Of a stretch of 32,000 nucleotides of DNA, positions 10,604 to 30,595 are shown in pieces. Position 1 is the first letter of the stretch. Each line of letters begins with the position of its first letter. Origin of the DNA: Clostridia bacterium (GTDB taxonomy: Bacteria; Bacillota; Clostridia; TANB77; RGIG9151); the NCBI GenBank assembly GCA_017934955.1, contig JAGBIO010000011.1, forward strand, positions 116,377 through 148,376, given 5' to 3'. A program made the translations under genes and the position numbers. The notes beneath the pieces are model-generated. The model was not told where the DNA came from, did no database searches, and saw only the letters and a program-made list of their open reading frames with translations.

Positions 10604-10798
10604 TTGTATTATCACGAAGAAAGGGGACTTATTCAATTGAACGGAAATGAAAGTTTAGATAATTTACCGCTTGCTATGGCGTATGTGCCGATGCAAAGAT
10701 GGAGAAATATTTATGACGCCGATGTCGGAATCGACAGAGGAACCATGTTTCAAGAGTTAGATCTTCCGTTTTTAGGAGATAGAGGTGATGCGCAATGA
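10604..10798 (+). CDS. cotJA: Spore coat-associated protein CotJA
   Basis: LAMAYVPMQRW...GTMFQELDLPF is a CotJA-type signature. Stop overlaps the cotJB ATG (ATGA). Start uncertain: TTG 10604, or TTG 10637 after AAAGGGGA. Confidence 0.7.
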   Translation: MYYHEERGLIQLNGNESLDNLPLAMAYVPMQRWRNIYDADVGIDRGTMFQELDLPFLGDRGDAQ

Positions 10799-11055
10799 TG
10801 GGAGAAAAAGAGTTGCTTTTTAAGAAATTACAAGCGGCTTCTTTTGCGCTTGATGACATAAAACTTTTCCTTGATTCGCATCCGAACGATAGAGGAGCAT
10901 TAGAGTGCTTCTGCAAGTATCAAAAAATTTATATGGAATTACGAGATGAGTATGAATCAAAATGCGGCGCATTGATGGCAAACCGTGTGGATACTAACAA
11001 GGGATGGACTTGGATTGAAAATCCGTGGCCTTGGGAATTGGAGGCGAATCGTTAA
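10795..11055 (+). CDS. cotJB: Spore coat protein CotJB
   Basis: 86 aa. LQAASFALDDIKLFLDSHPND...KYQKIY is typical of CotJB. Sits between cotJA and cotJC with overlapping stop/start codons. Confidence 0.85.
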   Translation: MMGEKELLFKKLQAASFALDDIKLFLDSHPNDRGALECFCKYQKIYMELRDEYESKCGALMANRVDTNKGWTWIENPWPWELEANR

Positions 11056-11660
11056 TGTGGCAATATGATAAAAAATTACAATACCCGGTAAAGATTGAAC
11101 GTCCGAATCCGGCGACAGCGAAGATTATCATGGCGCAACTCGGTGGTCCTGATGGTGAGTTAGCGGCGTCTATGCGTTATTTGTCGCAGAGATATGCGAT
11201 GCCTCATAAAGAAGTAAAAGGAATGCTGACGGATATAGGTACGGAAGAGCTTGCACATTTGGAAATGATTAGTGCCATCCTTCACCAATTAACAAGAAAT
11301 ATGACTCCGGAAGAAATAAAAAAAGCTGGATTTTCAGACTACTTTGTAAATCATACCGCTGGAATTTGGCCGAGTAATTCTTCCGGTGAACCGTTTACCT
11401 CTGCCTATTTTCAATCCAAAGGCGACCCAATTACCGATTTAACGGAGGATATGGCTGCAGAACAAAAAGCAAGAACGACATACGATAATATTTTAAGACT
11501 TGTCGACGATCCTGATATTCGTGAACCGATTAAGTTTTTACGTGAAAGAGAAATTGTGCATTTCCAACGGTTTGGCGAGAGCTTGAGAACTGTGCAGGAT
11601 CATTTGGATTCAAAGAATTTTTATGCGTTTAACCCTGCGTTTGATAAGAAACAAAAATAG
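11055..11660 (+). CDS. cotJC: Spore coat protein CotJC (manganese catalase family)
   Basis: MWQYDKKLQYPVKIERPNP, GGPDGELAASMRYLSQRY, EELAHLEMI. ATG 11055 overlaps the cotJB TAA (TAATG) and follows GGAGG. The ORF-track GTG at 11025 lies inside cotJB. Confidence 0.9.
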   Translation: MWQYDKKLQYPVKIERPNPATAKIIMAQLGGPDGELAASMRYLSQRYAMPHKEVKGMLTDIGTEELAHLEMISAILHQLTRNMTPEEIKKAGFSDYFVNHTAGIWPSNSSGEPFTSAYFQSKGDPITDLTEDMAAEQKARTTYDNILRLVDDPDIREPIKFLREREIVHFQRFGESLRTVQDHLDSKNFYAFNPAFDKKQK

Positions 11661-12555: not shown

Positions 12556-12793
12556 GTGGAACTTTTGAAAAAAGTGGACAGCATAAATGCTGTTCGTACG
12601 AAATAAGATGAATACTAAAAAACTTAAGAGGAGCAAAAGTTTTGAAAAAAAGTGGACAGCATAAATGCTGTCCGTACGAAATAAGATGAATACTAAAAAA
12701 CTTAAGAGGAGTGGAAATTTAGAAAAATGGACAGCATAAATGCTGTCCGTACGAAATAAGATGAATAGCAAAAAACTTAAGAGGAGCGAGAAT
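12556..12793 (+). repeat. Tandem array (partial + 78 + 75 + ~65 bp units), each unit a REP hairpin GGACAGCATAAATGCTGTCC plus a copy of the DUF368 leader/5' codons
   Basis: Hairpins start at 12576, 12654 and 12729. Inter-hairpin sequence CGTACGAAATAAGATGAATACTAAAAAACTTAAGAGGAG is conserved between units. Confidence 0.9.
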
Positions 12794-13606
12794 ATGAAAG
12801 AGAAAAAATGGAGCGTGTTTTTAAAAGGGCTGATTGTTGGCGGGACGATGACGGTGCCGGGAGTAAGCGGGGGTTCCATGGCGATGATTTTGGGAATCTA
12901 TGAGCGATTAATTTCTTCAATCAGTTCCTTTCGGAAACAGAAAAAAGAAAGTATCTTGTTTTTGAGTATATTTTTGGCAGGAAGTTTTTTAGGAATGTTT
13001 TTATTTGCGAATTGGCTATTGCGATTAATGGAACGCTATCCGATACCGGTTAAATATTTCTTTGTAGGCGCGGTTGCGGGAGGAATTCCGATGATATTTC
13101 GTGCTGCGAAAGTAAAAAAGTTAACAGGGAAAGCAATCCTCTATTTAATTCTTGGGATTGCTGTCGTATGGCTTATTTCTTTGCTTCCGAACGGACTGTT
13201 TTCGGCACAAAACAATACCGGTCTATACGGAAGTTTATTACAAATTATCGGAGGTTTTATTGTTGCAATCGCCTTGGTACTTCCGGGAATCAGCGTTTCT
13301 CAAATGCTTTTGATGCTTGGATTATATGAGGAAGTAATCAGTGCGATTGGAAGTTTAAATGTTTTAGGAATTCTTCCGTTGGGATTTGGGATAATCATCG
13401 GAATTTTTCTTACGACAAAGGTATTGGAAGGGACAATGCAACGCTATCCACAGGCGACTTACTTGATTGTTTTGGGATTTATCTTAGGGTCGATTCCGGA
13501 ACTGTTTCCCGGCTTTTCGGCAAGTTTAGAACAAGTAATCGCGATTGTAACCGCAATTTCCGGATTTTTTGCGGTATATAGTATTTCACGAAAAGAGAAC
13601 GAATAA
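12794..13606 (+). CDS. DUF368 family polytopic membrane protein (family recently linked to undecaprenyl-phosphate recycling)
   Basis: ATG 12794 follows GAGGAG by 5 nt. N-terminal TMTVPGVSGGSMAMILGIYERLI and a second PGISVSQMLLMLG repeat, with multiple TM segments. Confidence 0.85.
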   Translation: MKEKKWSVFLKGLIVGGTMTVPGVSGGSMAMILGIYERLISSISSFRKQKKESILFLSIFLAGSFLGMFLFANWLLRLMERYPIPVKYFFVGAVAGGIPMIFRAAKVKKLTGKAILYLILGIAVVWLISLLPNGLFSAQNNTGLYGSLLQIIGGFIVAIALVLPGISVSQMLLMLGLYEEVISAIGSLNVLGILPLGFGIIIGIFLTTKVLEGTMQRYPQATYLIVLGFILGSIPELFPGFSASLEQVIAIVTAISGFFAVYSISRKENE

Positions 13607-13739
13607 AGAAAAGAGGAAAAAAAGACTTTCTTGCTGTCAATAACAAAGAAAAATTTCATCCTTAAAATATAAAAAGTTAACAAACGAAAATGACATCCCT
13701 ATTATTATCTGAGAGCTAATTCTCAAGCCAGTAATAAGT

Positions 13740-13980
13740 CTATCCTGCAGAGTATTCCAATTTCTTTTCAAGTTCAGCAGAAGGAGCTTTAATAGGTTTA
13801 CGCCCCTTGTTTTTATGAATAGTACCATCAACACTATTTAATAAAACACTCCTTTTGAGTCGTTGAATTTAGTGTTTTAAGAAATCTAACAGCTTGAGGA
13901 AAAGTGTACTTACCATTAATAACGCCATCAATAATACTAAATTTTCTTACTTCTTTTTCACTCATAAAATATCTTTCCAT
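13740..13980 (-). pseudogene. N-terminal remnant of an ISNCY (IS1202-group) transposase, frameshifted and truncated
   Basis: Minus strand reads MERYFMSEKEVRKFSIIDGVINGKYTFPQAVRFLK..., then in another frame QRLKRSVLLNSVDGTIHKNKGRKPIKAPSAELEKKLEY. This matches the HTH N-terminus (..STRQ..RLK....IHKNRGRKP) of ISNCY transposases. No catalytic domain follows. Confidence 0.55.
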
Positions 13981-13984
13981 AATA

Positions 13985-14156
13985 GTTACTACCATAAAAA
14001 CACCCGTCTATTCAGACTTAAATTTATAGAGAAGGCGTAAACACTGTAGGGACAGCATTTATGCTGTCCACAGAAAATGCGGAATGCAGGACAGCATAAA
14101 TGCTGTCCCTACAAGGCTTTGGCGAAAATAATAAGTTGTTAAGTCAGAATAGTAAC
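13985..14156 (+). mobile_element. MITE-like element copy a with REP doublet core (14045-14113)
   Basis: Ends GTTACT...ATTCAGACTT / AAGTCAGAATAGTAAC, with a 19-nt insertion in the left TIR. Flanks CCATAATA / CTATAATA (7/8). Confidence 0.75.
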
Positions 14157-14226
14157 CTATAATAAATTTATTTTAGCATTAAAGGTTGATATTGTTACTG
14201 AGTAATAAGATTTTTTGAAAGTGGAA

Positions 14227-14256
14227 TTGACATAAATAATATACTTGGTGTATAAT
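14227..14256 (+). promoter_or_regulatory. promoter of the HD-domain gene
   Basis: TTGACA (14227-14232), 18-nt spacer, TATAAT (14251-14256). Leaves a ~170-nt leader containing the hairpin 14286-14324. Confidence 0.6.
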
Positions 14257-14431
14257 GGTGGTGGTTGGTAAATAAGGATAGAGTAGGGCAATTGCTGAAC
14301 TCGGAGGTGGAAAAGGCAATGCCCGAATGCCAAAACAGACGGTATTAGAAGCAGGAAGGAATGAAAATTAAAAAAATTCATAAACTTTCTGCCGGAACTC
14401 AACGACTACGCGTAATGCGGGAGGGACTGCA

Positions 14432-15748
14432 ATGAACGCTATCCTCATGAACATCGTTTACTTTATCCTGGCGGAAGCCTTTTACCGCTTGAAACTTTCG
14501 GAGTCCTGGCGTGGCCTTCAAAAGTCTCAAGAAGGTTTCTCCAAGGAAGACAAAGAAGCGTTGAATGCGCTTGTCGCGATGGTACTTGTGCCGATTTTCC
14601 AGAGCGAATACGGACTCATCTGCAGCATTGAAAATATGGCAAAGTATGTCCTGTACCGTATTTTCAAGAAGGCATTCCTTTGGGATTCTAAGCCGCAGAA
14701 TAAGCGGTTCCTGGAGCAGAAAATCGACTTCGACGCGGAAGCGAAAAAGTACGTGAAGGAATGTATTCGTAAGATGCTGAATGAGTATCGCGAAGAGGAA
14801 AACTACAAAGCCGCATGTGCTCTCGCGACAGATGTCCTTTCGCAGACCGACGCGAAGTATCGTGCGTCCTTTAGCTATTCGGTTTTGGCGTCTTCTCCTG
14901 CGACAGAAGAGGATATCGAGCGATTGGCTGATTGGATTTGTGGCGATCTTGCGAACTGCGATCCGAACGTAGAATACATCTACGAGGCAGCGAAGGACTT
15001 GACAACTGTCATCGAGTACGAAGAAGTTCGTGATAATCTTCGTGCGGATGCGGTAGATGAGATCAAGAAGAGCGTCTACAGCAAGTTGGACAAGTTCCAT
15101 GATCATCCCATTATTTACGAGATTGCACTCGGAACCGGTAAATACGGGAAATTGAACCAGCTCCTTCACACGATTTCGTGGGCTCGCTATACCTTTAGGT
15201 GGCAAGGATACAAGATGACCATTCGCTGCTCTATCCTGACACACATGCTGGAAACTGGTCTTCTTGGCTATGTAGCTGCCTATGAAGGACTGCAGAAAGC
15301 AACGAATGAACAGGAGTATGCGGAGAGGAAAGCAATGATGGAAAAAGCTTTTAAAGTGGGGCTTTTCCACGATGTTGCTGAGATCTGGACCGACGATATT
15401 CCTTCGCCGGCGAAGGATGGAATGGGAATTCGTCCCTTGGCAGAGGAACAGGAACTTCACGCGATTGAAGAAAAATTCTACCCCAATTTGCCTGAGTATG
15501 TGGTAGAGTTTTTCCGGAATGGCGTAATGCTGGAGGATACGAAGGATCTGCGTGAAAAGAGCTTCTACAAGGCGGCGGATTATTTCTCCGCAGACCTGGA
15601 GGTCTGGTGGAATATCCGTGCCGGCGCTCGAGATAAGCGTCTCCTTCGTATCTTGCAGAAGTCTCTGAAGTGCGAGCGGACGCCCGGTCAGTTGACCAGC
15701 ATCCAGTATTTCCTGCTGGAGATGAAAGGCGTCAAGTTCTACCTGTAA
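14432..15748 (+). CDS. 438-aa protein: unknown ~230-aa N-terminal domain + YfbR-like HD-domain 5'-deoxynucleotidase fold
   Basis: GGGAGGGA RBS. The C-terminal half aligns by eye with E. coli YfbR: RWQGYKMTIRCSILTH vs RWPLMRNVRTENVSEH; GLFHDVAEIWTDDIPSPAKD vs MYHDASEVLTGDLPTPVKY; KSFYKAADYFSA vs KSLVKQADALCA. Confidence 0.8.
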   Translation: MNAILMNIVYFILAEAFYRLKLSESWRGLQKSQEGFSKEDKEALNALVAMVLVPIFQSEYGLICSIENMAKYVLYRIFKKAFLWDSKPQNKRFLEQKIDFDAEAKKYVKECIRKMLNEYREEENYKAACALATDVLSQTDAKYRASFSYSVLASSPATEEDIERLADWICGDLANCDPNVEYIYEAAKDLTTVIEYEEVRDNLRADAVDEIKKSVYSKLDKFHDHPIIYEIALGTGKYGKLNQLLHTISWARYTFRWQGYKMTIRCSILTHMLETGLLGYVAAYEGLQKATNEQEYAERKAMMEKAFKVGLFHDVAEIWTDDIPSPAKDGMGIRPLAEEQELHAIEEKFYPNLPEYVVEFFRNGVMLEDTKDLREKSFYKAADYFSADLEVWWNIRAGARDKRLLRILQKSLKCERTPGQLTSIQYFLLEMKGVKFYL

Positions 15749-15757
15749 CTTCTTTTA

Positions 15758-15800
15758 CCCCGCGAAGATTAAACAGCCCTTCGCGGGGCTTTTCTTTTTG
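15758..15800 (+). terminator. rho-independent terminator of the HD-domain gene
   Basis: CCCCGCGAAG (15758-15767) / CTTCGCGGGG (15779-15788), then CTTTTCTTTTT. Confidence 0.85.
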
Positions 15801-15803
15801 GGG

Positions 15804-15956
15804 GTTACTATTTAGACTTAAAATTGTAAAAATGGCACAAACACTGTAGGGACAGCATTTATGCTGTCCACAGAAAAGGCAGAAAGCAGGACAGCATGAA
15901 TGCTGTCCGTACAATGATTGCATCAATATTATAGGAAATATAGTCTGAACAGTAAC
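15804..15956 (+). mobile_element. MITE-like element copy b with REP doublet core (15845-15913)
   Basis: GTTACTATTTAGACTTAAA ... TATAGTCTGAACAGTAAC. Core TGTAGGGACAGCATTTATGCTGTCC-ACAGAAAAGGCAGAAAGCA-GGACAGCATGAATGCTGTCCGTACA. Confidence 0.8.
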
Positions 15957-15985
15957 TTTTTTGGAAAATTTGTTGAAAAAAGCAC

Positions 15986-16014
15986 TTGACGACGATGAAA
16001 AAAAAGGCTATACT
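15986..16014 (+). promoter_or_regulatory. promoter of tRNA-Met
   Basis: TTGACG, 17-nt spacer, TATACT, ending 15 nt before the tRNA 5' end. Confidence 0.65.
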
Positions 16015-16029
16015 ATTCAAGTAACTTAT

Positions 16030-16106
16030 GGCGGCGTAGCTCAGTTGGCTAGAGCATACGGTTCATACCCGTAGTGTCGTTGGTTCGATCCCGACCGCCG
16101 CTACCA
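16030..16106 (+). tRNA. tRNA-Met (anticodon CAT), elongator type, CCA encoded
   Basis: Cloverleaf readable: acceptor GGCGGCG/CGCCGCT, D arm GCTC-AGTTGGCTA-GAGC, anticodon arm TACGG-TTCATAC-CCGTA, T arm GTTGG-TTCGATC-CCGAC. From memory, close to the B. subtilis elongator tRNA-Met. Confidence 0.93.
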
Positions 16107-16110
16107 AGTA

Positions 16111-16137
16111 AAGCACGCAGGAATGCGTGCTTTTTTC
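16111..16137 (+). terminator. terminator after tRNA-Met
   Basis: AGCACGCA-GGAA-TGCGTGCT followed by TTTTT. Confidence 0.85.
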
Positions 16138-16156
16138 AATTTATTAATCGGAGCAG

Positions 16157-17134
16157 GTGAAACAAGTGATTAAACCAATAAAAATCGGAAGCGTGGAAAT
16201 AAAAAATAATGTGTTTTTGGCACCGATGGCGGGAGTGACCGATATGCCTTTTCGAAAATTGTGTCGAGAGTTTGGTGCAGGGTTGGTTTATACCGAAATG
16301 GCAAGTTCTAAGGCAGTCGAGTATAAAAGCGAAAAGACCGAAAATATTTATAGAGTATTTGAAGAAGAACATCCGATTGCAATTCAAATTTTTGGTTCCG
16401 AACCGGAAATTATGGCAAATACGGCAGAAAAATTAAGTAATTTTGCAGATTTAATCGATATTAATATGGGCTGTCCTGCCAATAAAATTGTAAAAAACGG
16501 CGAAGGTTCGGCGTTAATGAAGAATTTGGACTTAGCGGCAAGAATTATAGAGGCAACGGTGAAAGCTTCGAAAGTTCCGGTTAGCGTAAAAATGCGAAAA
16601 GGTTGGGATGAGAAGCATATTAATGCACCGGAATTGGCGAAGGTTGCTGAAAATTGCGGGGCTGTTATGGTTACGATTCATGGCAGGACGAGGGAACAAA
16701 TGTATAGCGGAGAGGCAGATTTGGAAATCATTCGAAAAGTGAAGGAAACCGTAAAAATACCGGTTATCGGAAACGGGGACATTCGTGACTTTGCGTCGGC
16801 AGAGAGAATGTTTAAAGAAACCCGCTGTGACGGAATTATGGTGGCACGTGGCGCACAGGGAAATCCATGGATTTTCCGTGAAATTTTGACCGGTAAATCC
16901 GATAAGCCGACAGTACAAGAGAAAATTGCGTTAATTATTCGTCATTTGGAGCTTGAAGTGGCACATAAAGGGGAATATACCGGTATTCGCGAGATGAGAA
17001 AACATATTGCGAATTACTTAAAAGGAGTTCCAAATTCTTCGCAAATAAAAGAGGAAATTAATCATTTAGAGAGTGCAGAAGAAGTAAAGGCAGTGTTAAA
17101 TAATATACGAAAGATGGGAGAGAAAATATGTTAG
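16157..17134 (+). CDS. dusB: tRNA dihydrouridine synthase DusB
   Basis: FLAPMAGVTDMPFR, INMGCP, HGRTREQ and the C-terminal helical domain typical of the Dus family. GTG start; GTG 16166 is an alternative. Confidence 0.9.
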   Translation: MKQVIKPIKIGSVEIKNNVFLAPMAGVTDMPFRKLCREFGAGLVYTEMASSKAVEYKSEKTENIYRVFEEEHPIAIQIFGSEPEIMANTAEKLSNFADLIDINMGCPANKIVKNGEGSALMKNLDLAARIIEATVKASKVPVSVKMRKGWDEKHINAPELAKVAENCGAVMVTIHGRTREQMYSGEADLEIIRKVKETVKIPVIGNGDIRDFASAERMFKETRCDGIMVARGAQGNPWIFREILTGKSDKPTVQEKIALIIRHLELEVAHKGEYTGIREMRKHIANYLKGVPNSSQIKEEINHLESAEEVKAVLNNIRKMGEKIC

Positions 17135-17694
17135 AGCGTTTTTTTCCGAATTACTATACAGACAAAGTTTCTGATTTAAAAACCGAATTTTTTACAGAAA
17201 GAAAGATAAAAGGAATTTTAATCGATATTGATAATACATTAATTGATTATTATGAAAATATCGCAGAAGACACGTTACAGTGGATTGAACATATAAAAAA
17301 GAGTGGAATAAAAATTCTATTATTATCCAATAATAACAAAGATAGGGTAAATCGAATCGGAAATCGTCTTGGCGTGGAGGGAATTTATTATGCCGCAAAG
17401 CCAAGAAGAAGAGGATTTGTATCGGCAATGGAAAAAATGCACCTTAAAAATCATGAAGTTTGTATTATAGGAGATCAATTGTTTACCGATATTTACGGTG
17501 GAAATCGCCTAAATATTTTTACAGTTTTGGTGAAACAAGTACATGAACGAGATATTTGGATTACCAAATTTAAAAGACCTTTAGAAAAGCACATTATGAG
17601 GCTTTTCCTGAAAAATGATGATAAAATGGCTAAAAGACGCGATTCTTGGAAAGAAAAGAGCGCTATCAGTAAGAAAATTCAAGAAAAAAATTAA
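17128..17694 (+). CDS. yqeG: YqeG-family HAD-IIIA phosphatase
   Basis: GILIDIDNTL (DxDxT), LLSNN, IGDQLFTD. Overlaps the dusB stop by 7 nt. Confidence 0.8.
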   Translation: MLERFFPNYYTDKVSDLKTEFFTERKIKGILIDIDNTLIDYYENIAEDTLQWIEHIKKSGIKILLLSNNNKDRVNRIGNRLGVEGIYYAAKPRRRGFVSAMEKMHLKNHEVCIIGDQLFTDIYGGNRLNIFTVLVKQVHERDIWITKFKRPLEKHIMRLFLKNDDKMAKRRDSWKEKSAISKKIQEKN

Positions 17695-17719
17695 GAAAAA
17701 TTTAGGAAAATGCTATAAT
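17691..17719 (+). promoter_or_regulatory. hup promoter
   Basis: TTAAGA, 17-nt spacer, extended -10 TGCTATAAT (17711-17719). Confidence 0.5.
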
Positions 17720-17785
17720 ATTTTCTTAAAATGCCGATAATAACCATGAAAGTTGAAATACAAAATTTTAGAGGGGGTATTTTTA

Positions 17786-18061
17786 ATGAACAAAGCTGAA
17801 TTAATCGCAGCAATGGCAGCAAAAGCTGATTTGACAAAAAAGGATTCGGAAAGTGCGTTAAATGCATTTATTGATACAGTTTCTGAATCTCTTAAAAAAG
17901 GAGACAAAGTTGGTTTAGTTGGATTCGGTACATTCGAAGTTAAGAGCAGAGCAGCTCGTGAAGGTGTTAACCCACAAACGAAAAAAGCTATCAAGATTCC
18001 TGCTAAGAAAGCTCCTGTTTTCAAAGCTGGTAAAGGCTTAAAAGAATTAGTAAATGGCTAA
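17786..18061 (+). CDS. hup: DNA-binding protein HU
   Basis: [11 protein letters not shown]...[23 protein letters not shown] 17786 follows GAGGGGG; the ORF-track start at 17753 is too early. Confidence 0.95.
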
Positions 18062-18070
18062 CACACAAAA

Positions 18071-18100
18071 CTGCTTGAAAATTCCTTCAAGCAGTTTTTC
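18071..18100 (+). terminator. hup terminator
   Basis: CTGCTTGAA / TTCAAGCAG stem followed by TTTTTC. Confidence 0.85.
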
Positions 18101-18114
18101 TTTATACAGTGTTA

Positions 18115-18156
18115 AAATAAAGAGATACCGTATAACGCTCGGTATCTCTTTATTTT
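18115..18156 (-). terminator. motB terminator (hairpin also usable in the + direction)
   Basis: AGAGATACCG (18121-18130) / CGGTATCTCT (18140-18149), flanked by A/T runs. Confidence 0.7.
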
Positions 18157-18158
18157 AT

Positions 18159-18926
18159 CTACTCAACTGCATAATTTCTTAAAATCGTAATTTCCACACG
18201 TCGATTCTGCGCTCTGCCTTCCGCCGTATCGTTTGTAGCAATCGGCTGAAACTCTCCGTTGCTTGTTGCCGTTAAATAACTTGGCGTCAAAGCACATTCA
18301 TTCACTAAATACTTTAATACGTTAATCGCTCTTAATCCACCCAGTTCCCAGTTTGACGGAATCATAGGATTTCCTCTCATCGGAATATTATCGGTATGTC
18401 CCTCAATTTGAATGTAGTTATTCGGAAGATTTTTTAAAACATCTCCGATTTTCGCCATAATCGGTTTCGATTCTTCGTTAATATAGGGGCTTCCGCTGTT
18501 AAATAAAACAGCATCTTTAATTCGAATATGTACTCCAACATCGTCAATAACAACTTCTAATGAATCGGATAAGCCTTCCAATTCAGCAATATCTTCTACC
18601 TGCTGTTTAATCATATCCATATTTCTGGCTTCAATAGCACTATTGGATAACGTAGCATCTCCTGAGTAACCATCAATAATGCTATCGCCGGAATACATTT
18701 CGATTACAGAACCACTAAGAGTCGTGTTACCAAATGCACTTGCAATTGCAGCTAAAGCGGAAGCTTGACCTGAGCCATCTGAACCGGCTGCCTTTGCATC
18801 GGCAGAAGCCATAGAATATAAAATAATGAATACAGCACATAAAAGCGTTATAAAGTCGGAATATGAAACTAGCCAACGTTCGCTGTTTTCTTTTTCAGCT
18901 GGTTTGGCTTTTTTCTTTATAGCCAT
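18159..18926 (-). CDS. motB: MotB-like stator protein (OmpA-like C-terminal domain)
   Basis: N-terminal SERWLVSYSDFITLLCAVFIILY (TM with conserved Asp). C-terminal peptidoglycan-binding region ...AQNRRVEITIL. Confidence 0.8.
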   Translation of the reverse strand: MAIKKKAKPAEKENSERWLVSYSDFITLLCAVFIILYSMASADAKAAGSDGSGQASALAAIASAFGNTTLSGSVIEMYSGDSIIDGYSGDATLSNSAIEARNMDMIKQQVEDIAELEGLSDSLEVVIDDVGVHIRIKDAVLFNSGSPYINEESKPIMAKIGDVLKNLPNNYIQIEGHTDNIPMRGNPMIPSNWELGGLRAINVLKYLVNECALTPSYLTATSNGEFQPIATNDTAEGRAQNRRVEITILRNYAVE

Positions 18927-18943
18927 AATCTAATCCCTCCAGT

Positions 18944-19753
18944 TTATTCAGCATTTCTTGATGATTTTTTTGCATTACTTTCATTTGGAGCAATTCCGTT
19001 TAATTCAGCAATTAAATCATAACTCAATTTATCTTTCATAATTTTAGGATTTTCGCCGGCTTGAATAGATAAAACTCCTTCAATAACAAGCTCTGCAGTA
19101 GCAGATTCATGTTTAGCAATTGTTTTTACTTTATTTGCAAAAGGTAAATAGATAACATTAGCAAAACATACGCCGTATAGTGTTGCAACGAAAGCAACTG
19201 CAATAGCATGTCCTAAGTGGGCCATATCAGCAGTTGCAAGATTTTGTAAAAGATTTATTAATCCCATAACGGTACCGATAATACCCATTGTAGGCGAATA
19301 TCCACCTGCCGCCTCAAATCCGGCAGCTGCTGCGTGTAAATCATTTTCTGAAATTTCGGCTTGACGCATTAATGTTTCAGCAACTAAGTCCTTATCCAGC
19401 CCACTCATAATAAGTTCTAATCCTTTTTTTATTAATGCATTATCTTGTTTTGGAATTTCCTCTTCTAAGCTTAATATTCCAGACCGCCTTGCTTTATCAC
19501 CGAGTTCAGCCAATCGGTTTATTATTGCAAGTTGATCGATCGGTTTATTGTTGAAAACAATTTTTACTGCCTTACCCATTTTTTTAATTTCTTCCATAGG
19601 AAAGGATATTAAAACCGCTCCAACAGTACCACCTACGACAATCATAAATGCTGTTATCTGGAACAAATTGGCAAATGCTCCGCCTTCTAACCAAAAGGCA
19701 GATAAAAACATTCCGAATGCAACAAATAATCCAGCAAGACTTAATATATCCAT
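18944..19753 (-). CDS. motA: MotA-like stator protein (MotA/TolQ/ExbB proton channel family)
   Basis: 269 aa. Two N-terminal TM segments, a cytoplasmic loop, and the C-terminal channel helices YSPTMGIIGTVMGLI...AVAFVATLYG. Confidence 0.85.
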   Translation of the reverse strand: MDILSLAGLFVAFGMFLSAFWLEGGAFANLFQITAFMIVVGGTVGAVLISFPMEEIKKMGKAVKIVFNNKPIDQLAIINRLAELGDKARRSGILSLEEEIPKQDNALIKKGLELIMSGLDKDLVAETLMRQAEISENDLHAAAAGFEAAGGYSPTMGIIGTVMGLINLLQNLATADMAHLGHAIAVAFVATLYGVCFANVIYLPFANKVKTIAKHESATAELVIEGVLSIQAGENPKIMKDKLSYDLIAELNGIAPNESNAKKSSRNAE

Positions 19754-19840
19754 AACTTATTCAATCCTCCTAATATTCTCAATCACTCATTGTTATCGGT
19801 TTTCCGTAAAAAAAACTTAACAAAAAGCGACAAGGAAAGC

Positions 19841-19871
19841 AAAAAAAATCGGGTTCTAAAATTAAGAACCC
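19841..19871 (-). terminator. topA terminator
   Basis: Minus strand: GGGTTCT-TAATTTT-AGAACCC followed by GATTTTTTTT. Confidence 0.75.
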
Positions 19872-19881
19872 ATTTTTCTGG

Positions 19882-21963
19882 CTATTTTTTTACACTTTCC
19901 GATTCGATTTCGTATTTACAATTATCGTTACAACAAATCAATTTTTTCCCTTTCTTATACATAAAATTACCGCATTTCGGGCAATTGGTATCGGTTGGTT
20001 CTTCCCAAATCATGAAATTGCAGGCTTTACTGTTTTCGCAAGCATAATATTTTTTACCACGTCTTGTTTTTCGAATTAAAACTTTTCCATGACATACCGG
20101 ACAGAACTTTCCGGTTTCTTCGACAATCGGTTTTGCGTTTCGACATTCCGGGAATCCGGGGCACGCTAAGAATTTACCGTATTTTCCTTGTTTAATCACC
20201 ATCATTCTGCCGCATTTTTCGCATTGTACGTCGCTCTCTTCATAAGTCAATTCCACTTTTCCAATTTTCTCTTCCGCAACTTTCAATGTTTCTGAAAAAG
20301 GACCGTAGAAGTTATCGATAACTTCTTTCCAAGGAATTTTTCCTTCCTCAATTTCATCCAAATCGGTTTCCATTTCCGCCGTAAATGCAATATCCATAAT
20401 ATTCGCAAAATTTTCTTTTAATAAGTCGGTTACAATAGTCCCTAATTCTGTCGGATAAAGAACTTTCTTTTCTTTTTCGATGTAGCCTCTTGAAATAATC
20501 GTCGTAATAGTAGGAGCATAGGTACTCGGTCTTCCGATACCTTTTTCTTCTAATGCTTTCACTAAACTTGCTTCGGAATAACGAGGAGGCGGTTCGGTAA
20601 AATGCTGTTTTGGAGAAATCTCTTTCTTTACGACTTTTTCTCCTTCGCTAAGAGGAGGAAGAATCACATCTTTTTCATTTTCTCCGGATTCATTTGTTTC
20701 GGTATATAACGTCATAAATCCCGGAAATTTTATTTGCGAACCGTTCGCTTTTAAGAGATATTCTCCGGCACGAATGTCAATCGCCAAAGTTGTAAAAACA
20801 GCAGATGCCATCTGGCTTGCCATAAAGCGTTCCCAAATTAGTTTGTACAGCTTAAATTGTTCGTTGCTTAATGAATCTTTAATTTCTTCCGGCTTGATAT
20901 GCAAATAAGAAGGACGAATCGCTTCGTGAGCGTCTTGTGCAGACTTTTTCGATTTATACACATTCGGAGCAGTAGGGTAGAAGTCATTTCCGTAGGTACT
21001 TTTGATAATCGATTCCGCTTCTTTTTGAGCTTCTTCTGAAATTCTGGCGGAATCGGTTCTCATATAAGTAATCAAACCGATTGTACCGTGTCCTTTGATA
21101 TCTAATCCTTCATATAACTGTTGCGCAATCATCATAGTTTTGGAAGCACCGAAACCGTATTTTCTGGATGCTTCCTGCTGTAATGTACTGGTGATAAACG
21201 GTGGGGCAGGGTGACGTTTCTTTTCACCGGGCTTGATGGAAGAAATAATATAATCTGCATTTTTTAAATCTTTTAGAATTTTATCCGCTTCTTCTTTGGA
21301 AGAAATGTCTGTTTTTTTGTCGCCTTTTCCGTAGAATTTCGCTTCAAATGTTTTTGTACTTTTTTCCTTTGCGAGGGTCGCGGTAATCGTCCAATATTCT
21401 TCCGGAATAAACTTTTCGATTTCTCTTTCCCGGTCAACAATCAATTCTACCGCAACCGATTGAACACGTCCGGCACTCAATCCTTTTTTGACGTTTTTCC
21501 ATAAAAGCGGGCTGATTTTATAACCCACAATTCGATCCAAAACACGTCTTGCTTGTTGGGCATCTACTAAATTCATATCAATATTTCGCGGATTAGCAAT
21601 TGCCTTTTTTACAGCACTTTCGGTAATTTCATTAAACGTCACACGAACTAAATTTTTTTCCGGTACGTCCAACAAAGACGCAAGATGCCAAGAAATTGCT
21701 TCTCCCTCACGATCCGGGTCGGTTGCGAGAAAAACTTTTTTACTGTCTTTTGCCGCTTTTTTTAGTTTCTTAATTAAATCGGCTTTACCACGTATATTAA
21801 TGTATTTCGGTTCAAAATGATTTTCAATATCGATTCCAAGTTGGCTTTTCGGAAGATCCCGAATGTGTCCCATCGAAGCTTCTACTTTGTAGTTACTTCC
21901 TAAGAATTTTTTAATTGTCTTTGATTTTGCAGGTGACTCAACGATAATCAAATAACTTGCCAT
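19882..21963 (-). CDS. topA: DNA topoisomerase I
   Basis: 693 aa. Toprim N-terminus IIVESPAKSKTIKKFLG, a conserved type IA core, and three C-terminal C4 zinc ribbons. Confidence 0.97.
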   Translation of the reverse strand: MASYLIIVESPAKSKTIKKFLGSNYKVEASMGHIRDLPKSQLGIDIENHFEPKYINIRGKADLIKKLKKAAKDSKKVFLATDPDREGEAISWHLASLLDVPEKNLVRVTFNEITESAVKKAIANPRNIDMNLVDAQQARRVLDRIVGYKISPLLWKNVKKGLSAGRVQSVAVELIVDREREIEKFIPEEYWTITATLAKEKSTKTFEAKFYGKGDKKTDISSKEEADKILKDLKNADYIISSIKPGEKKRHPAPPFITSTLQQEASRKYGFGASKTMMIAQQLYEGLDIKGHGTIGLITYMRTDSARISEEAQKEAESIIKSTYGNDFYPTAPNVYKSKKSAQDAHEAIRPSYLHIKPEEIKDSLSNEQFKLYKLIWERFMASQMASAVFTTLAIDIRAGEYLLKANGSQIKFPGFMTLYTETNESGENEKDVILPPLSEGEKVVKKEISPKQHFTEPPPRYSEASLVKALEEKGIGRPSTYAPTITTIISRGYIEKEKKVLYPTELGTIVTDLLKENFANIMDIAFTAEMETDLDEIEEGKIPWKEVIDNFYGPFSETLKVAEEKIGKVELTYEESDVQCEKCGRMMVIKQGKYGKFLACPGFPECRNAKPIVEETGKFCPVCHGKVLIRKTRRGKKYYACENSKACNFMIWEEPTDTNCPKCGNFMYKKGKKLICCNDNCKYEIESESVKK

Positions 21964-22077
21964 TGTTTCACTCCTATTCTGAAGAATTAATCTTCCTTTA
22001 ATTCAAATAGAGTGTACATTAAAAAAAAAAAATATGCAACAACTTTTGAAAAAATGAAAATCTCCCACATCTAATCT

Positions 22078-23160
22078 TTATTCTTTAATATAGTTGCTTC
22101 CCGGAAGTTGTTTAATGTATCCGCTTAACTCCATGTCGGTTAAAAGGGGGAGTAATTCGCTTGCCGGAATTTGTGTTTCTTGAATAATGATATCGAGTGG
22201 TGTTGGAGTGAGAGACAGCAAGTTATACACTTTCCTTTCTATTGGTGTTAAAGAGGGTGGAGGTGATTTTTTTATTTTTTTCTGCGGAGTAGGCAAGATT
22301 TGGCGGAGGTAGTGCTGCAAGTCACTGATGATGTCTTGAGCGGAAGTGACGATTTTAGCACCGTCTTTGATTAATTCGTTGGTTCCTTCTGAGAAAGGTG
22401 TGCAGATATTGCCGGGGACTGCGTAAACTTCTCGCCCGGCTTCGGCGGCTAATCGTGCGGTGATGAGAGTTCCGCTTTTTTTTGCGGCTTCGATGACTAA
22501 AGTTCCTAAAGAAAGACCGGCGACAATGCGGTTTCGCACCGGAAAATTTTGCGAGATTGGTGCGGTATGGAGAGGAAATTCTGAAAAAACCGCTCCGTTT
22601 TCTGCGATTTGCTCATATAATTTTCTGTTTTCCGAAGGATAAATAACGTCAATTCCGCTACCTAAAACGGCTATGGTACGTCCGTTTGCAGAAATGGCGG
22701 ATTGATGAGAAAAAGAATCAATCCCTCTTGCCATACCGCTGATGACGGTAATACCGGCAGAAGCTAATTCAAAAGCCATTTTTTGTGTGACCGCTTTCCC
22801 GTAAGGGGTGTAGTTTCGAGAGCCGACGATAGAGATAGAAACTTCGTCTTGCGGTAAAAGACTTCCTTTATAAAAGAGAATAGGTGGCGGGGAAGGAGCG
22901 TTTTGCAGATTAATTGGATATTCCTGTGAAAGAAAACTGATTAAATGAATATTGTTTTTTCGACAAAATTCAAATTCTCTTTCCGCTTGTTTTTTGAGTG
23001 CATCAAAAGAGAAGCGGAAACGAACTTTTTCGGGAAAGGGTTCCTCTGTATTTTGTAAAGAAAAAAGATTTTCCGGAGTAGGATGGTTTATTAAAAATTG
23101 TTGTAATAATGTGTAATTGCTTTCAAATATCAGAGAAAGCCAGAGTAAATATAATTCCAT
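22078..23160 (-). CDS. dprA: DNA-processing protein DprA
   Basis: GSRNYTPYG...SGMARGIDSFSH...AVLGSGIDVIYPSEN Rossmann-like DprA core, plus a C-terminal winged-helix-like tail. Confidence 0.9.
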   Translation of the reverse strand: MELYLLWLSLIFESNYTLLQQFLINHPTPENLFSLQNTEEPFPEKVRFRFSFDALKKQAEREFEFCRKNNIHLISFLSQEYPINLQNAPSPPPILFYKGSLLPQDEVSISIVGSRNYTPYGKAVTQKMAFELASAGITVISGMARGIDSFSHQSAISANGRTIAVLGSGIDVIYPSENRKLYEQIAENGAVFSEFPLHTAPISQNFPVRNRIVAGLSLGTLVIEAAKKSGTLITARLAAEAGREVYAVPGNICTPFSEGTNELIKDGAKIVTSAQDIISDLQHYLRQILPTPQKKIKKSPPPSLTPIERKVYNLLSLTPTPLDIIIQETQIPASELLPLLTDMELSGYIKQLPGSNYIKE

Positions 23161-23216
23161 AATGTCACCTCATTACAAATCATAACATATTTTACAAATT
23201 ATTACAATACATTTTT

Positions 23217-23437
23217 GTTACAGTTCAGAATGAACCTTATATATACCTTAAAATGTTTCTTAATCATTGTAGGGACAGCATTTATGCTGTCCACAGAAAA
23301 GGCGGAAAGCAGGACAGCATGAATTGTGTCCGCGGAATAGGCAGAAGGTAGAATTAGGACACAATAAATTGTGTCCGTATAAACCGCATTCTGGCGATAT
23401 TTTTCGAAAGATACAAGATTATAGTCTGACCTGTAAC
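23217..23437 (+). mobile_element. MITE-like element copy c with a three-hairpin chimeric REP core
   Basis: GTTACAGTTCAGAATG ... ATAGTCTGACCTGTAAC. ACATTTTT is present at both flanks (23209-23216 and 23436-23443). Hairpins at ~23273, 23312 and 23357. Confidence 0.8.
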
Positions 23438-23465
23438 ATTTTTTGAACAAATATTGGAAAAGTTG

Positions 23466-27015: not shown

Positions 27016-27049
27016 ATTGTAAGGACGGCGGAACTGTCGTCCCTACAAT
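27016..27049 (+). repeat. single REP-like palindrome (GC-rich variant) just after the fusA stop
   Basis: ATTGTAAGGACGGC-GGAA-CTGTCGTCCCTACAAT. Keeps the GGAC...GTCC foot and the CTACA tail of the family. Confidence 0.7.
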
Positions 27050-27053: not shown

Positions 27054-27216
27054 GTTACTGGTCAGACTCAAATTTATAAAGAAGGCACAAACACTGTAGG
27101 GACAGCATTCATGCTGTCCACAGAATAGGCAGAAGAGCAGGACAGCATAAATGCTGTCCGTACAATAAATTGAGAAAAAATTAAGGCCGTATATAAAGTT
27201 AAGACTGACTTGTAAC
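27054..27216 (+). mobile_element. MITE-like element copy d with REP doublet core (27095-27164)
   Basis: GTTACTGGTCAGACTCAAA ... TTAAGACTGACTTGTAAC. Perfect 8-bp direct repeat CAATAATA at 27046-27053 and 27217-27224. Confidence 0.85.
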
Positions 27217-28715: not shown

Positions 28716-28891
28716 AAACTACATTCAGACTATAATCTTTCTAAAATGTGGCACAATCGCTGTAGGGACACAATTTATTGTGTCCGCGAAATAGGCAGAT
28801 GATAGAATTAGGACACAATAAATTGTGTCCCTACAAAAGATGTTCTAACGATATTTTTTGAAAGTTATAAATTTATAGTTTGAATAGTAAC
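28716..28891 (+). mobile_element. MITE-like element copy e with B-type REP doublet core (28761-28836)
   Basis: AAACTACATTCAGACTATAATC ... TTTATAGTTTGAATAGTAAC. Core TGTAGGGACACAATTTATTGTGTCC...GGACACAATAAATTGTGTCCCTACA. The left end is degenerate. Confidence 0.7.
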
Positions 28892-29840: not shown

Positions 29841-29946
29841 GTTAAAGTTCAGATTTAAATTGTCACAAATATAGCGGGACGTCGAGGACGCCGTCCCCTA
29901 CAATGATGTCAGAATCATTGTAGAAAGATATAGTCTGACCTGTAAC
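29841..29946 (+). mobile_element. MITE-like element copy f (short; single GC-rich REP)
   Basis: GTTAAAGTTCAGATTTAAATTG ... TATAGTCTGACCTGTAAC. Core GGGACGTCGAGGACGCCGTCCCCTACA. Flanks TAGGTGTG / TATGTGTG (7/8). Confidence 0.75.
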
Positions 29947-29969: not shown

Positions 29970-30527
29970 ATGGAGCAATTTGAATGGTTAAGAAATTATA
30001 TTCCGCAAAATGAGCAGGAGGAGAAGGATAAGCAAGTGATGCTGAATTTTACGGAAAAGTTTGATAATTTATTTACTCGTGAGAATGATATTGCACATTT
30101 TACAGCGTCGGCGTGGGTTGTAAATCCGGAGCGGACAAAGGTTTTGATGATTTATCATAATATTTATCAGTCTTGGGCGTGGACAGGTGGTCACGCAGAT
30201 GGAGAGACGGATTTGTTGAAAGTTGCAGTGAAGGAATTAAAAGAGGAAACCGGTGTTGAGAAGGTAACAGTTATTTCAGAAGAACCGTTTTCGATTGAGG
30301 TTCTTTGTGTGAATGGGCATGAGAAAAGAGGAAAATATGTTTCTTCGCATCTTCATTTTAATGTTACTTTTCTGTTGGAGGTAACGGAGGAAGAGATGTT
30401 ACGTTGTAAGCCGGATGAGAATAGCGGGGTAAAGTGGTGCTGCTTAAAGGATGTGGAGAAATTGTCGAGTGAGCCGTGGATGAATGAGAGAATTTATAGA
30501 AAGTTAAATGGGCGATTGAATATGTAG
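29970..30527 (+). CDS. Nudix hydrolase
   Basis: Nudix box GGHADGETDLLKVAVKELKEETGV. The stop TAG (30525-30527) lies inside the GTAG of the next REP. Confidence 0.85.
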   Translation: MEQFEWLRNYIPQNEQEEKDKQVMLNFTEKFDNLFTRENDIAHFTASAWVVNPERTKVLMIYHNIYQSWAWTGGHADGETDLLKVAVKELKEETGVEKVTVISEEPFSIEVLCVNGHEKRGKYVSSHLHFNVTFLLEVTEEEMLRCKPDENSGVKWCCLKDVEKLSSEPWMNERIYRKLNGRLNM

Positions 30528-30595
30528 GGACACAATTCATTGTGTCCTTTAAATAGCAGAAAACCGAAATGGACAGCATAAATGCTGTCCGTACG
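30523..30595 (+). repeat. shell-less REP doublet (B-type left, A-type right)
   Basis: TGTAGGGACACAATTCATTGTGTCC-TTTAAATAGCAGAAAACCGAAAT-GGACAGCATAAATGCTGTCCGTACG. No GTTAC...AGACT ends around it. Confidence 0.85.

Follow-up and report, generated by a model that had tools for sequence, protein, structure and literature searches.

A family of short hairpins, many of them inside longer repeated elements, lies in the intergenic regions of a 32,000-nucleotide stretch of bacterial DNA (the window). The source is a MAG of an uncultured gut organism, annotated as Clostridia bacterium, with a G+C content of about 37%, and the initial annotation was correct in placing the repeats in a low-GC Firmicute. 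Genes next to them include a DUF368/VCA0040-like gene, dprA, rpsL, fusA, tuf, a NUDIX gene, and a tRNA-Met gene. The hairpins are referred to here as REPs, their inverted pairs as doublets, and the longer elements with terminal inverted repeats (TIRs) as shells. In Proteobacteria, REPs with a 5' GTAG and their inverted doublets (REPINs/BIMEs) are substrates of Y1 HUH transposases (RAYT/TnpA_REP), and work on REP/REPIN-RAYT systems has been almost entirely on that group. The features are listed below, with a strand where one was assigned.

12563..12787, + strand: tandem array, 2.9 copies of a 78-bp unit, 5' of the DUF368/VCA0040-like gene (12794-13606)
12576-12595, 12654-12673, and 12729-12748, + strand: array hairpins, one per unit, followed by GTAC and then the ribosome-binding site AAGAGGAG
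13985..14156, + strand: shell a, TIRs GTTACT..TTCAGACTTAAA and TTAAGTCAGAATAGTAAC, flanks CCATAATA/CTATAATA
14045..14113: REP doublet a, TGTAG-GGACAGCATTTATGCTGTCC, 19-nt spacer, GGACAGCATAAATGCTGTCC-CTACA
15804..15956, + strand: shell b, flanks TTTTGGGG/TTTTTTGG
15845..15913: REP doublet b, left tag GTAG, right tag GTAC
23217..23437, + strand: shell c, in the spacer between divergent dprA and rpsL
23268..23380: the three hairpins of shell c
23273-23292: hairpin 1 of shell c, GC type
23312-23331: hairpin 2 of shell c, a chimera of GGACAGCATGA and ATTGTGTCC with the junction in the loop
23357-23376: hairpin 3 of shell c, CA type, degenerate tag
27018..27047: single 'double-foot' REP, TGTAA-GGACGGCGGAACTGTCGTCC-CTACA, directly 3' of the fusA stop codon
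27054..27216, + strand: shell d, in the fusA-tuf spacer, with a perfect 8-bp duplication CAATAATA at 27046-27053 and 27217-24
27095..27164: REP doublet d, tags GTAG and GTAC, 20-nt spacer
28716..28891, + strand: shell e, degenerate left end, no recognisable target-site duplication
28761..28835: REP doublet e, compensatory stems GGACACAAT..ATTGTGTCC, 25-nt spacer
29841..29946, + strand: shell f, flanks TAGGTGTG/TATGTGTG
29876-29901: the only hairpin of shell f, G+C-rich, GGGACGTCG-AGGA-CGCCGTCCC-CTAC
30523..30594: shell-less doublet, a CA-type REP (30528-30547) and a GC-type REP (30571-30590), the latter tagged GTAC

Hairpins and shells of the window

A total of 18 hairpins of the form GGAC-N5-loop-N5-GTCC were identified in the window, all within 12576-30590, and none are expected by chance. 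This agrees with the earlier count of about 18 in 18 kb. A looser scan for this form gave 16 of them; the other two are the chimera at 23312 and the hairpin with G.T wobbles at 27023. The pattern GGACAGCAT-NN-ATGCTGTCC, with two mismatches at most, was found 12 times in the window and 0 times in 100 shuffles. The hairpins are 20 nt long with perfect or near-perfect 9-bp stems and 2-4-nt loops, as in REP palindromes. GC/GC and CA/TG stem variants are both present and are compensatory. All 18 lie between called genes, with one tag overlapping a stop codon. It had been claimed that GTAG precedes each hairpin. This is the case for 10 of the 18, but six carry GTAC and two have degenerate tags. GTAC falls outside published REP tag definitions (GT[AG]G, 0-2 nt from the stem foot). 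A reading of ACACAATAAATTGTGT as an NrdR box was rejected; it fits the CA variant only, and no nrd genes lie downstream of the sites.

Every doublet core that had been listed (14045, 15845, 23268, 27095, 28761, and 30523) was recovered, as were the single hairpins at 12576, 12654, 12729, about 27018, and about 29876, the first three of which form the tandem array with its 78-bp period. The core of copy c was described as a doublet; its hairpins were found, but there are three of them and the middle one is chimeric. The second hairpin that had been given for copy b (GGACAGCATAAATGCTGTCCCTACA) belongs to copy a, and that of copy b is GGACAGCATGAATGCTGTCCGTACA. The six inverted doublets have outward tags and 19-25-nt spacers, which is the REPIN arrangement. 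In a and e, the two 25-nt arms are 100% complementary, and in the predicted fold of b the first REP pairs with the second. The 30523 doublet does not fold in this way; its arms are not complementary because its two stems differ. Within the TGTAG of this doublet, TAG (30525-30527) serves as the NUDIX stop codon, and other GTAG REPs that supply a TAG stop codon are reported in PMC3733652. The single REP at 27018-27047 has two G.T pairs in its stem on the + strand. REP copies and shells were found past both window ends too. In the 46.4 kb of host genome that could be read (the window with 7.9 kb and 6.5 kb of flanks), there are 26 hairpins, and the local density is about 0.6-0.7 per kb.

The six shells of the window are 106-221 bp long, can all be aligned with each other, and have TIRs of the form GTTAC-N3-TCAGACT. 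The pattern GTTAC-N2-5-TYAGAMT has 6 matches in the window, where 0.04 are expected. The shell ends are inverted repeats as claimed, but the left end of shell e is degenerate. The left TIR of shell a has an internal indel of 19 nt. Six doublet cores had been assigned to shells. Five of these (a-e) are correct, but shell f contains a single hairpin and the 30523 doublet has no shell. The 8-bp sequences that flank the shells were identical at 8/8 positions for d, at 7/8 for a, f, and h, at 6/8 for b and g, at 5/8 for c, and at 1/8 for e, where the chance of at least 7/8 matches is 0.001 per pair. Shells g and h lie beyond the window ends (h is L001 20101-20291), and the flanks of g were re-read by eye. 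These target-site duplications, of a fixed 8-bp length, are newly recognised. The shells are therefore true transposase-type MITEs, which adds to the initial annotation's description of a second, TIR-type non-autonomous element.

The shells differ in their internal history. Shell b follows a canonical terminator (15775-15790) and precedes the tRNA-Met promoter, and its predicted fold is one long hairpin (DNA -31.5 kcal/mol, z -8.0; RNA -62.2, z -10.0). A separate canonical terminator also stands 5' of shell f. Shell c is chimeric; its left half is like a, b, and d and its right half is like e, with 23312-23438 and 28766-28892 being 80% identical. A 101-nt segment of paralogue h, comprising a CA-type doublet and bounded by direct GTAG repeats, is missing from shell f. 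This could be a deletion between short GTAG repeats instead of a transposition footprint. An 88-nt insertion was found within one hairpin loop. The REP units are 95-98% identical among copies, while the surrounding shell has drifted to 57-84%.

No mobilising enzyme was found by protein family scans of the window genes, as had been stated, and no autonomous IS with shell ends was found in the 46.4 kb. A search for a transposase gene flanked by shell ends had been suggested; the shell TIR pattern is at none of the 115 genome loci listed as matches to the hairpin pattern. In 70 metagenome loci, it gave just two isolated one-ended matches, and no shell was seen. The one candidate for a parent IS, a transposase N-terminal fragment at 13620-13995 next to shell a, was rejected for lying outside both TIRs. 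No Pfam or NCBIfam model matched it, and the target-site duplication of shell a indicates that the MITE inserted into it. Three TIR matches in viral contigs are chance matches in coding sequence, and four REP matches there are unrelated.

The hairpin in other genomes and in relatives of the host

The GTAG-GGACA..TGTCC stem-loop is not confined to this lineage; it is also present in Chloroflexota, Bacteroidota, Cyanobacteria, and many Clostridia MAGs, and the changes in its stem are compensatory. It occurs without this shell at more than 180 loci in many phyla (at least 115 genome loci and 70 metagenome loci). Among the matches listed for GTAGGGACA-NN-AT-NN-AT-NN-TGTCC, both free stem pairs are complementary in 159 of 169, versus 10.6 expected, and 11 dinucleotide types are represented. 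A hairpin type that crosses phyla with covarying stems points to one old, widespread hairpin-enzyme partnership.

In three genomes, the hairpin flanks a Y1/HUH RayT-like gene, and in two of the three it is also found in-frame inside the gene. The ORF of L099 (Chloroflexota) has NHVH, WQSRYHD, and YVLNNP motifs, and REPs lie on both sides of it and within it. That of L150 has NHFH and YIRKNP motifs; its internal REP encodes MDSMHAVRT, and a GTAC-tagged REP lies 12 nt past the stop codon. In L058 (Prevotella), there is a frameshifted RayT-like homologue with a doublet about 40 nt downstream. The REP-flanked proteins match only the NCBIfam model NF047646, REP-associated tyrosine transposase (E 5e-11 and 1.5e-15), and Pfam gave no call (Y1_Tnp with E 0.0098 or nothing). 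Their homologues are named RayT by JGI. Most of the homologues listed have an in-frame REP peptide 3' of the HUH motif, and these peptides include DSIDAVPT, which corresponds to the stem in the window; P0152 is a RayT with the same stem. An AlphaFold model of a REP-flanked protein (pLDDT 80), in which the REP-encoded segment is a low-confidence loop, matches IS608, ISDra2, and TnpA(REP) 4ER8 (E 5e-6, rmsd 4.0 A). By their motifs and the description in PMC6006769, rather than by a phylogeny, these putative enzymes match TnpA(REP) subclass 2.4. All-against-all clustering of ORFs from the 115 genome loci listed yielded no gene family that accompanies the hairpin, which would be expected of a single-copy enzyme. 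With the foot tags, the extragenic positions, and the doublets that fold as one hairpin, the association with RayT-like genes upholds the earlier proposal of a REPIN-like system.

The host's own enzyme was searched for in several ways. No RayT-like gene was found in the window or in the 46.4 kb. The REP peptide of the host is in none of the best 120 of more than 1584 homologues or the best 120 of more than 2710, and among these listed homologues there is no recognisable RayT of the host and no named RayT match from Firmicutes. A synthetic query with the conserved motifs and DSINAVRT matched only fragments of 112 aa or less. None of the 70 hairpin loci in the metagenome scan is from the host organism; the G+C content differs.

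Relatives with a 93.7% identical EF-G have a fusA-tuf spacer of 87 nt that is empty, being without shell d. Alignment with the window places its sequence immediately 3' of the fusA stop codon and again immediately 3' of shell d and its duplication. The 27018-27047 REP is also absent from this spacer, and no GTAG hairpins were found in the 9-16 kb of these relatives. A sister strain that is 97-99% identical has the same insertions at four comparable sites, and there is thus no sign of recent movement. Of the occupied and empty sites that the initial annotation called for, an empty site was seen in the relatives, but the sister strain gave no difference at its four sites. Short-read contigs of the sister strain start or end inside REP hairpins, which suggests many copies in the genome.

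Likeness to known systems

TnpA(REP) subclass 2.4, or RAYT group 4, is found in Cyanobacteria, Bacteroidetes, Chloroflexi, and scattered phyla (PMC6006769; PMC5581495). As in the REPs of this subclass, the window hairpins have a G/C-rich stem foot directly after the tetranucleotide, exist as singles and inverted dimers, and include a 'double-foot' form (27018-47). Their consensus is identical to that of the REPs at the RayT-like genes of L099, L150, L058, and P0152. They differ in that one third of the tags are GTAC and that the cognate gene was not found in 46.4 kb. The host also differs, being a Clostridia MAG; Firmicutes and Clostridia are not listed as hosts of GTAG REPs or of this subclass in the surveys consulted. 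The flanking 16-mers of RAYT group 4 occur about 14 times genome-wide (PMC5581495), whereas the figure of about 0.6-0.7 hairpins per kb given above is a local one.

The REPIN-RAYT systems of Pseudomonas and Escherichia (E. coli REP/BIME, 4ER8) share the inverted pair with a short spacer that forms one long hairpin, the extragenic location, and a GTAG guide-like tetranucleotide. They belong to another sequence family, however, and their RAYTs are of groups 2/3. The window stems, by contrast, are perfect over 9 bp and have no bulge; some doublets are made of two stem variants (30523), and many are passengers of a TIR element. IS200/IS605 elements (IS608, ISDra2) serve as the mechanistic model, with a Y1 HUH enzyme, subterminal hairpins that are recognised as single-stranded DNA, and a tetranucleotide 5' of the hairpin as the guide for cleavage, and the modelled fold of the REP-flanked protein from other genomes resembles theirs. 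In contrast, REPs are much shorter than these elements and non-autonomous, with neither tnpA nor tnpB inside.

The shells can be compared with the Firmicutes MITEs RUP (S. pneumoniae), Bcr1 (B. cereus), and EFAR (enterococci), which are listed in PMC3733652. These are also non-coding intergenic elements of 100-250 bp with TIRs, target-site duplications, and a long whole-element hairpin. The shells differ in that a REP doublet whose family also occurs independently forms their centre, that their TIR sequence is in no other organism among the loci examined, and that no parent IS was identified. PMC3733652 also reports composite TIRs from P. putida and P. fluorescens, in which degenerate GTAG-1 units are joined to unrelated stem-loops. 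There, too, REPs and unrelated inverted repeats make a larger multicopy unit. Those composites flank a RAYT gene, and no target-site duplication is described for them, whereas the outer repeats here behave as a DDE-type MITE with 8-bp duplications.

A probable two-layer arrangement and the alternatives

Two nested layers of non-autonomous mobile DNA, REP/REPIN hairpins and a lineage-specific MITE, are the probable explanation of these repeats. In the first layer, the REP is GGAC-N5, a 2-4-nt loop, and N5'-GTCC, with GTAG or GTAC at the foot, as a single or an inverted doublet. Elsewhere this hairpin family borders single RayT/TnpA(REP)-like Y1 HUH genes (subclass 2.4, Bertels group 4) and also lies in-frame within them. 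On the model of E. coli TnpA(REP) and IS608, the RayT enzyme would bind the folded single-stranded hairpin, and the foot tetranucleotide would guide it so that single-stranded DNA is cut and rejoined nearby. The second layer is a MITE of 106-245 bp with GTTAC-N3-TCAGACTTAAA TIRs and a central REP doublet. It would have been copied to new intergenic sites in trans by a classical DDE-type transposase, which left the 8-bp duplications. REP doublets would thus spread in two ways, alone and as MITE passengers. Stem-variant swaps, the chimeric hairpin, the GTAG-bounded doublet-sized indel, and the 88-nt loop insertion would be later REP changes in homologous shells. The elements are further members of known REP/REPIN and MITE kinds in a nested arrangement, and are largely ordinary selfish DNA. 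They are placed between the terminator of one gene and the promoter of the next, and so appear for the most part selfish or neutral.

An unlikely alternative is that there is a single MITE family, with the hairpins as its internal palindromes, the shell-less ones as decayed or truncated remnants, and no tyrosine transposase in the lineage. The TIRs and 8-bp duplications on the shells, the lack of a RayT gene in 46 kb, and the insertions shared with the 97-99% identical strain would all fit. However, seven shell-less singles, including the three of the tandem array, and a shell-less doublet in the window and flanks have kept a perfect stem and tag and show no remains of a shell. The REP units are also far better conserved than the shell, and REP content varies between homologous shells. 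In addition, the hairpin is shell-less at its more than 180 loci in many phyla, and it flanks and interrupts RayT genes in other genomes.

It appears equally improbable that the hairpins are host-serving RNA or DNA elements under selection (5'-UTR or 3'-end stabilisers, attenuators, or protein-binding sites) and not transposon substrates. The conservation of REP units within drifting shells could be read this way, and a role of REPs as RNA elements in other bacteria is reported in PMC3733652. Wherever single hairpins could be oriented, they are hairpin-then-tag on the strand of the downstream gene. Several are 16-150 nt 5' of a start codon, and the G.T pairs of the 27023 hairpin are on the transcribed strand only. 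The orientation bias is from about five independent sites on one replichore (L195 2885, L195 4516, the 12576 array, 27023, and L001 17500), however, and strand-specific insertion explains it equally well. On the + strand, an intrinsic terminator test called no REP and the hairpins lack a T-tract; canonical terminators of the genes are already present 5' of shells. The Rfam scan found tRNA only, with no match to the hairpins. A freely covarying 20-bp site across phyla argues for a folded strand and not a duplex operator. The hairpins are absent from the relatives with near-identical genes, and are therefore dispensable. Chance, an assembly artefact, or a CRISPR-like array can be dismissed, since only the metagenome-assembly source speaks for an artefact and this is already refuted by the same sequence in independent assemblies (ENA contigs, the NCBI MAG, and a Logan run), shuffles gave 0 matches, and the copies are irregularly spaced over eight different intergenic regions, partly inverted, and without cas genes.

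Within the two-layer explanation, a further possibility is more doubtful. The MITE-captured REP doublet could be a passenger by which a Y1-type replicator persists and multiplies without or alongside its own tyrosine transposase, with the f/h indel and the shell c chimera as direct traces of cutting and joining at the REP level in a Firmicute.

The repeats also have practical effects: short-read assemblies of gut Clostridia are broken at them, and they give rise to spurious ORFs. One such ORF is a 245-aa 'ThiF' form with its start inside a hairpin. A REP-dense Clostridia genome would extend the host range past that in the surveys consulted. The nested arrangement also provides a natural system for testing whether REP doublets that ride a MITE can outlive their transposase or bypass it.

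Hairpins of the window

The window has a G+C content of about 37% and its GC skew is positive throughout. Exact protein matches (MBP3284481-97) are annotated as 'MAG: Clostridia bacterium', and the DNA matches an ENA metagenome contig of 249 kb. The following features are present.

Features of the window
~450-8071, toxin-antitoxin and type I restriction-modification island
~10640-11660, spore genes, cotJ-like (CotJA, CotJB, Mn-catalase-type CotJC)
DUF368 gene and HD-domain gene
16030-16106, tRNA-Met
dus, motAB, topA and dprA
str operon: rpsL (23538), rpsG, fusA (24920), tuf (27308)
DUF4435, NUDIX and ThiF-like protein genes

The cotJ genes indicate that the host is a spore former. The 20-nt palindrome GGACAGCAT-NN-ATGCTGTCC (at most two mismatches) has 12 matches in the window and none in 100 shuffles. 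Sixteen hairpins are found once any N5 stem is permitted. Two more, one chimeric (23312) and one with G.T pairs (27023), bring the total to 18, within 12576-30590, which bears out the initial annotation's estimate of about 18; small slips aside, its coordinates were also correct. Another stem variant, GGACACAAT..ATTGTGTCC, departs from the first at two compensated positions, and two G+C-rich variants retain only GGAC..GTCC. The tag at the foot is GTAG in 10, GTAC in 6 and degenerate in 2. Inverted doublets with outward tags and spacers of 19-25 nt occur at six sites, and the 25-nt arms of doublets a and e are 100% complementary. The element at 27018-27047 is a double-foot REP. To the left of the window are two single hairpins (flank L195, 2885 and 4516), and to the right are one single hairpin and two further shells, g and h. 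Window and flanks together hold 26 hairpins in 46.4 kb.

The NUDIX gene ends on a hairpin tag: its TAG stop (30525-30527) is part of the TGTAG of a REP. For the ThiF-like gene, a mechanically called ORF of 245 aa (30569-31306) begins inside the next hairpin, and one public gene call (P0144) has that extended start. REPs and shells are absent from the island (SocA/MqsA-type antitoxin, HsdM, HsdS and HsdR; 32-35% G+C) but present to either side of it, which is consistent with recent acquisition. Just 5' of its first ORF is a 51-nt inverted repeat (156-206 and 309-359; 98% complementary, arms 102 nt apart). The rpsG-fusA spacer is 345 nt, compared to 30-40 nt in relatives, and carries a tandem duplication of about 147 bp (24582-24871) with 90-nt cores that are 99% identical. 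Each unit has three hairpins, one of which is CAGCAATTC-GCA-GAATTGCTG followed by TGTAC.

Shells, target sites and empty sites

The shell ends, GTTAC-N2-5-TYAGAMT, have six matches in the window against 0.04 expected, and the shells align with one another. Six doublet cores had been placed within six shells. The shells hold up, and they enclose five doublets and one single hairpin. The TIR ends were set by the shell alignment and the 8 nt outside each end were compared.

Flanking 8-nt sequences of the shells (left / right) and matching positions
Shell d, 27054-27216: CAATAATA / CAATAATA, 8/8
Shell a, 13985-14156: CCATAATA / CTATAATA, 7/8
Shell f, 29841-29946: TAGGTGTG / TATGTGTG, 7/8
Shell h, right flank L001 20101-20291, just beyond the window: CTTGAGGG / CTTGAGGC, 7/8
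Shell b, 15804-15956: TTTTGGGG / TTTTTTGG, 6/8
Shell g, L001 19851-20093: TTGAGGCG / TTGAGGGT, 6/8 (read by eye, right end moved 2 nt)
Shell c, 23217-23437: ACATTTTT / ATTTTTTG, 5/8
Shell e, 28716-28891: AGATTTGC / ACGCAAAA, 1/8

A match of at least 7/8 has a probability of 0.001 for random position pairs at equal spacing. TIRs with an 8-bp duplication are the signature of DDE-type cut or copy transposition, and the Y1 enzymes (IS200/IS605) are not known to make such a target-site duplication. By these marks the shells are true MITEs. The proposal that they are a second, TIR-type element is supported by the flanks of d, a, f and h.

Relatives were taken as contigs with an S12 protein of the same 90% cluster (EF-G 93.7% and EF-Tu 95.3% identical). 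Their fusA-tuf spacer, only 87 nt long, lacks shell d and the double-foot REP. It aligns right after the stop codon and again right after shell d and its duplication, so both elements are insertions. No GTAG-tagged hairpins were found in 9-16 kb of the relatives; the same scan gave 17 for the window and 0.07 for shuffles. Occupied and empty sites, envisaged by the initial annotation, can thus be seen against these relatives. They were not seen against a sister strain of 97-99% nucleotide identity (Logan SRR32406730), which shares the elements at all four comparable sites. Three of its short-read contig ends (L193, L204) lie inside REP hairpins (window positions 23291, 12738 and 14108), as expected of multicopy repeats; these repeats fragment assemblies of the organism.

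None of the 115 genome loci listed carries the TIR pattern. A looser pattern gave two isolated one-ended matches among 70 metagenome loci, and three matches in viral contigs are chance matches that fall within coding sequence. On this evidence the shell appears specific to the lineage. The window, its flanks and both sets of loci yielded no parent IS. A transposase-like gene remnant (13620-13995, minus strand) has about 85 N-terminal codons and is frameshifted (MERYFMSEKEVRKFSIIDGVINGKYTF.., then ..HKNKGRKPIKAPS..). Its start codon is the insertion site of shell a, and no Pfam or NCBIfam model matched it.

The shells have changed internally. In the four copies of the same type (a, b, d and g), identity is 95-98% across the REP units, compared to 72-83% in the TIRs and 57-82% in the inner flanks. 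Shell c is chimeric: its left part resembles a/b/d and its right part e. The two parts meet in the middle hairpin's loop, and that hairpin no longer pairs because GGACAGCATGA is joined to ATTGTGTCC. Shells f and h are homologous throughout except for a 101-nt segment with a CA-type doublet, found in h only. It is bounded by a GTAG direct repeat, of which f keeps one copy. The difference may have arisen by insertion or excision at the REP level beside GTAG, or by a deletion between short repeats. Shell g is inverted relative to the others, and the loop of one of its REP hairpins carries an 88-nt insertion (L001 19947-20034, about 5.3 kb past the window's right end). The insert starts with GTAG and includes both a direct repeat (CACTTCGTTC) and a further hairpin, GGACGTA..TACGTCC; a second copy is present in none of the fetched sequences.

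The hairpin family and RayT-like genes

One genome per species was scanned with GTAGGGACA-NN-AT-NN-AT-NN-TGTCC, yielding at least 115 loci. Hosts among the matches listed are Chloroflexota, Prevotella and other Bacteroidota, Cyanobacteria, Myxococcales and about a dozen Clostridia MAGs (Oscillospiraceae, Christensenella, Defluviitaleaceae and 'Clostridiales' RUGs). In 159 of the 169 matches listed from other organisms, the two free stem pairs are each complementary, against 10.6 expected, with at least 11 different types of free stem dinucleotide. This covariation supports the folded single strand as the selected object. The window's own stem retrieved the 70 metagenome loci, none of them from the window's organism. 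Judging by the MAG titles of the matches listed, uncultured Clostridia commonly carry the hairpin, with a density like the window's. Inverted doublets at other Clostridia or low-GC loci (L094, L102, L110, L181, L184) often combine two stem variants (e.g., CC with CG), like the one at window 30523; many such doublets thus cannot make one long hairpin.

Three loci have a gene with HUH and Tyr motifs that is bracketed by the hairpin.

RayT-like genes bracketed by the hairpin
L099, Chloroflexota: NHVH, WQSRYHD, YVLNNP; REPs upstream and downstream, doublet inside the ORF
L150, 37% G+C: NHFH, YIRKNP; REP inside the ORF (MDSMHAVRT), GTAC-tagged REP 12 nt past the stop
L058, Prevotella: frameshifted; doublet about 40 nt downstream

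These proteins are not called by Pfam. Their sole NCBIfam match is NF047646, 'REP-associated tyrosine transposase' (E 5e-11 and 1.5e-15, below the equivalog cut-off). Homologues number in the thousands and carry the JGI name RayT. Most of those listed (best 120 of more than 1584 and best 120 of more than 2710; L099, L150, P0001-P0265), from several phyla, have a REP-encoded peptide after the HUH motif in one conserved frame (D-x-x-x-x-V-x-T). Examples are RDAMHCVST, DTIDRVPT, DSMHAVRT and DSIDAVPT, the last encoded with the window's own stem. An AlphaFold model of the L150 protein (pLDDT 80.4) matches IS608, ISDra2 and TnpA(REP) 4ER8 (E about 5e-6), with the best rmsd to 4ER8 (4.0 A); the REP-encoded stretch is a low-confidence loop. 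The hairpin belongs to a widespread family with covarying stems and a tie to RayT-like genes. No RayT or MITE transposase gene was found in 46.4 kb of this genome.

Possible function and mechanism

Canonical terminators precede the shells (15775-15790 before b, 29758-29783 before f), and the next promoter is downstream of them. On the transcribed strand no T-tract follows the REPs, so they are not needed as terminators. The whole element folds strongly (z -8 as DNA, -10 as RNA). Every single hairpin that can be oriented has its tag after the hairpin when read along the downstream gene's strand, and several are close to ribosome-binding sites. In a 78-bp array (12563-12787), hairpin and ribosome-binding site are triplicated together. 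Drawn from about five independent sites, all on one replichore, the orientation bias fits a regulatory role and strand-specific insertion equally well.

In the published REP/TnpA(REP) model, the hairpin is recognized as single-stranded DNA and the tetranucleotide at its foot guides a nearby cut (PMC8266576). The mechanism proposed here is the same: an enzyme would recognize the REP as a single-stranded hairpin, and the foot tag would serve as its guide for cutting nearby. GTAG REPs have been reported from Proteobacteria, Cyanobacteria, Chloroflexi and the PVC group (Di Nocera 2013, PMC3733652), and subclass 2.4 from 'Cyanobacteria Bacteroidetes and various phyla' (Quentin 2018, PMC6006769). 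The host ranges in the surveys compared, these two among them, do not mention Firmicutes, whereas REP-type hairpins are found here in a Clostridia MAG. Given the comparison with published REP systems and the frequency of the hairpin in uncultured Clostridia, both layers belong to known kinds, a REP/REPIN family and a MITE family. What stands out is the nesting of one family of elements in the other.
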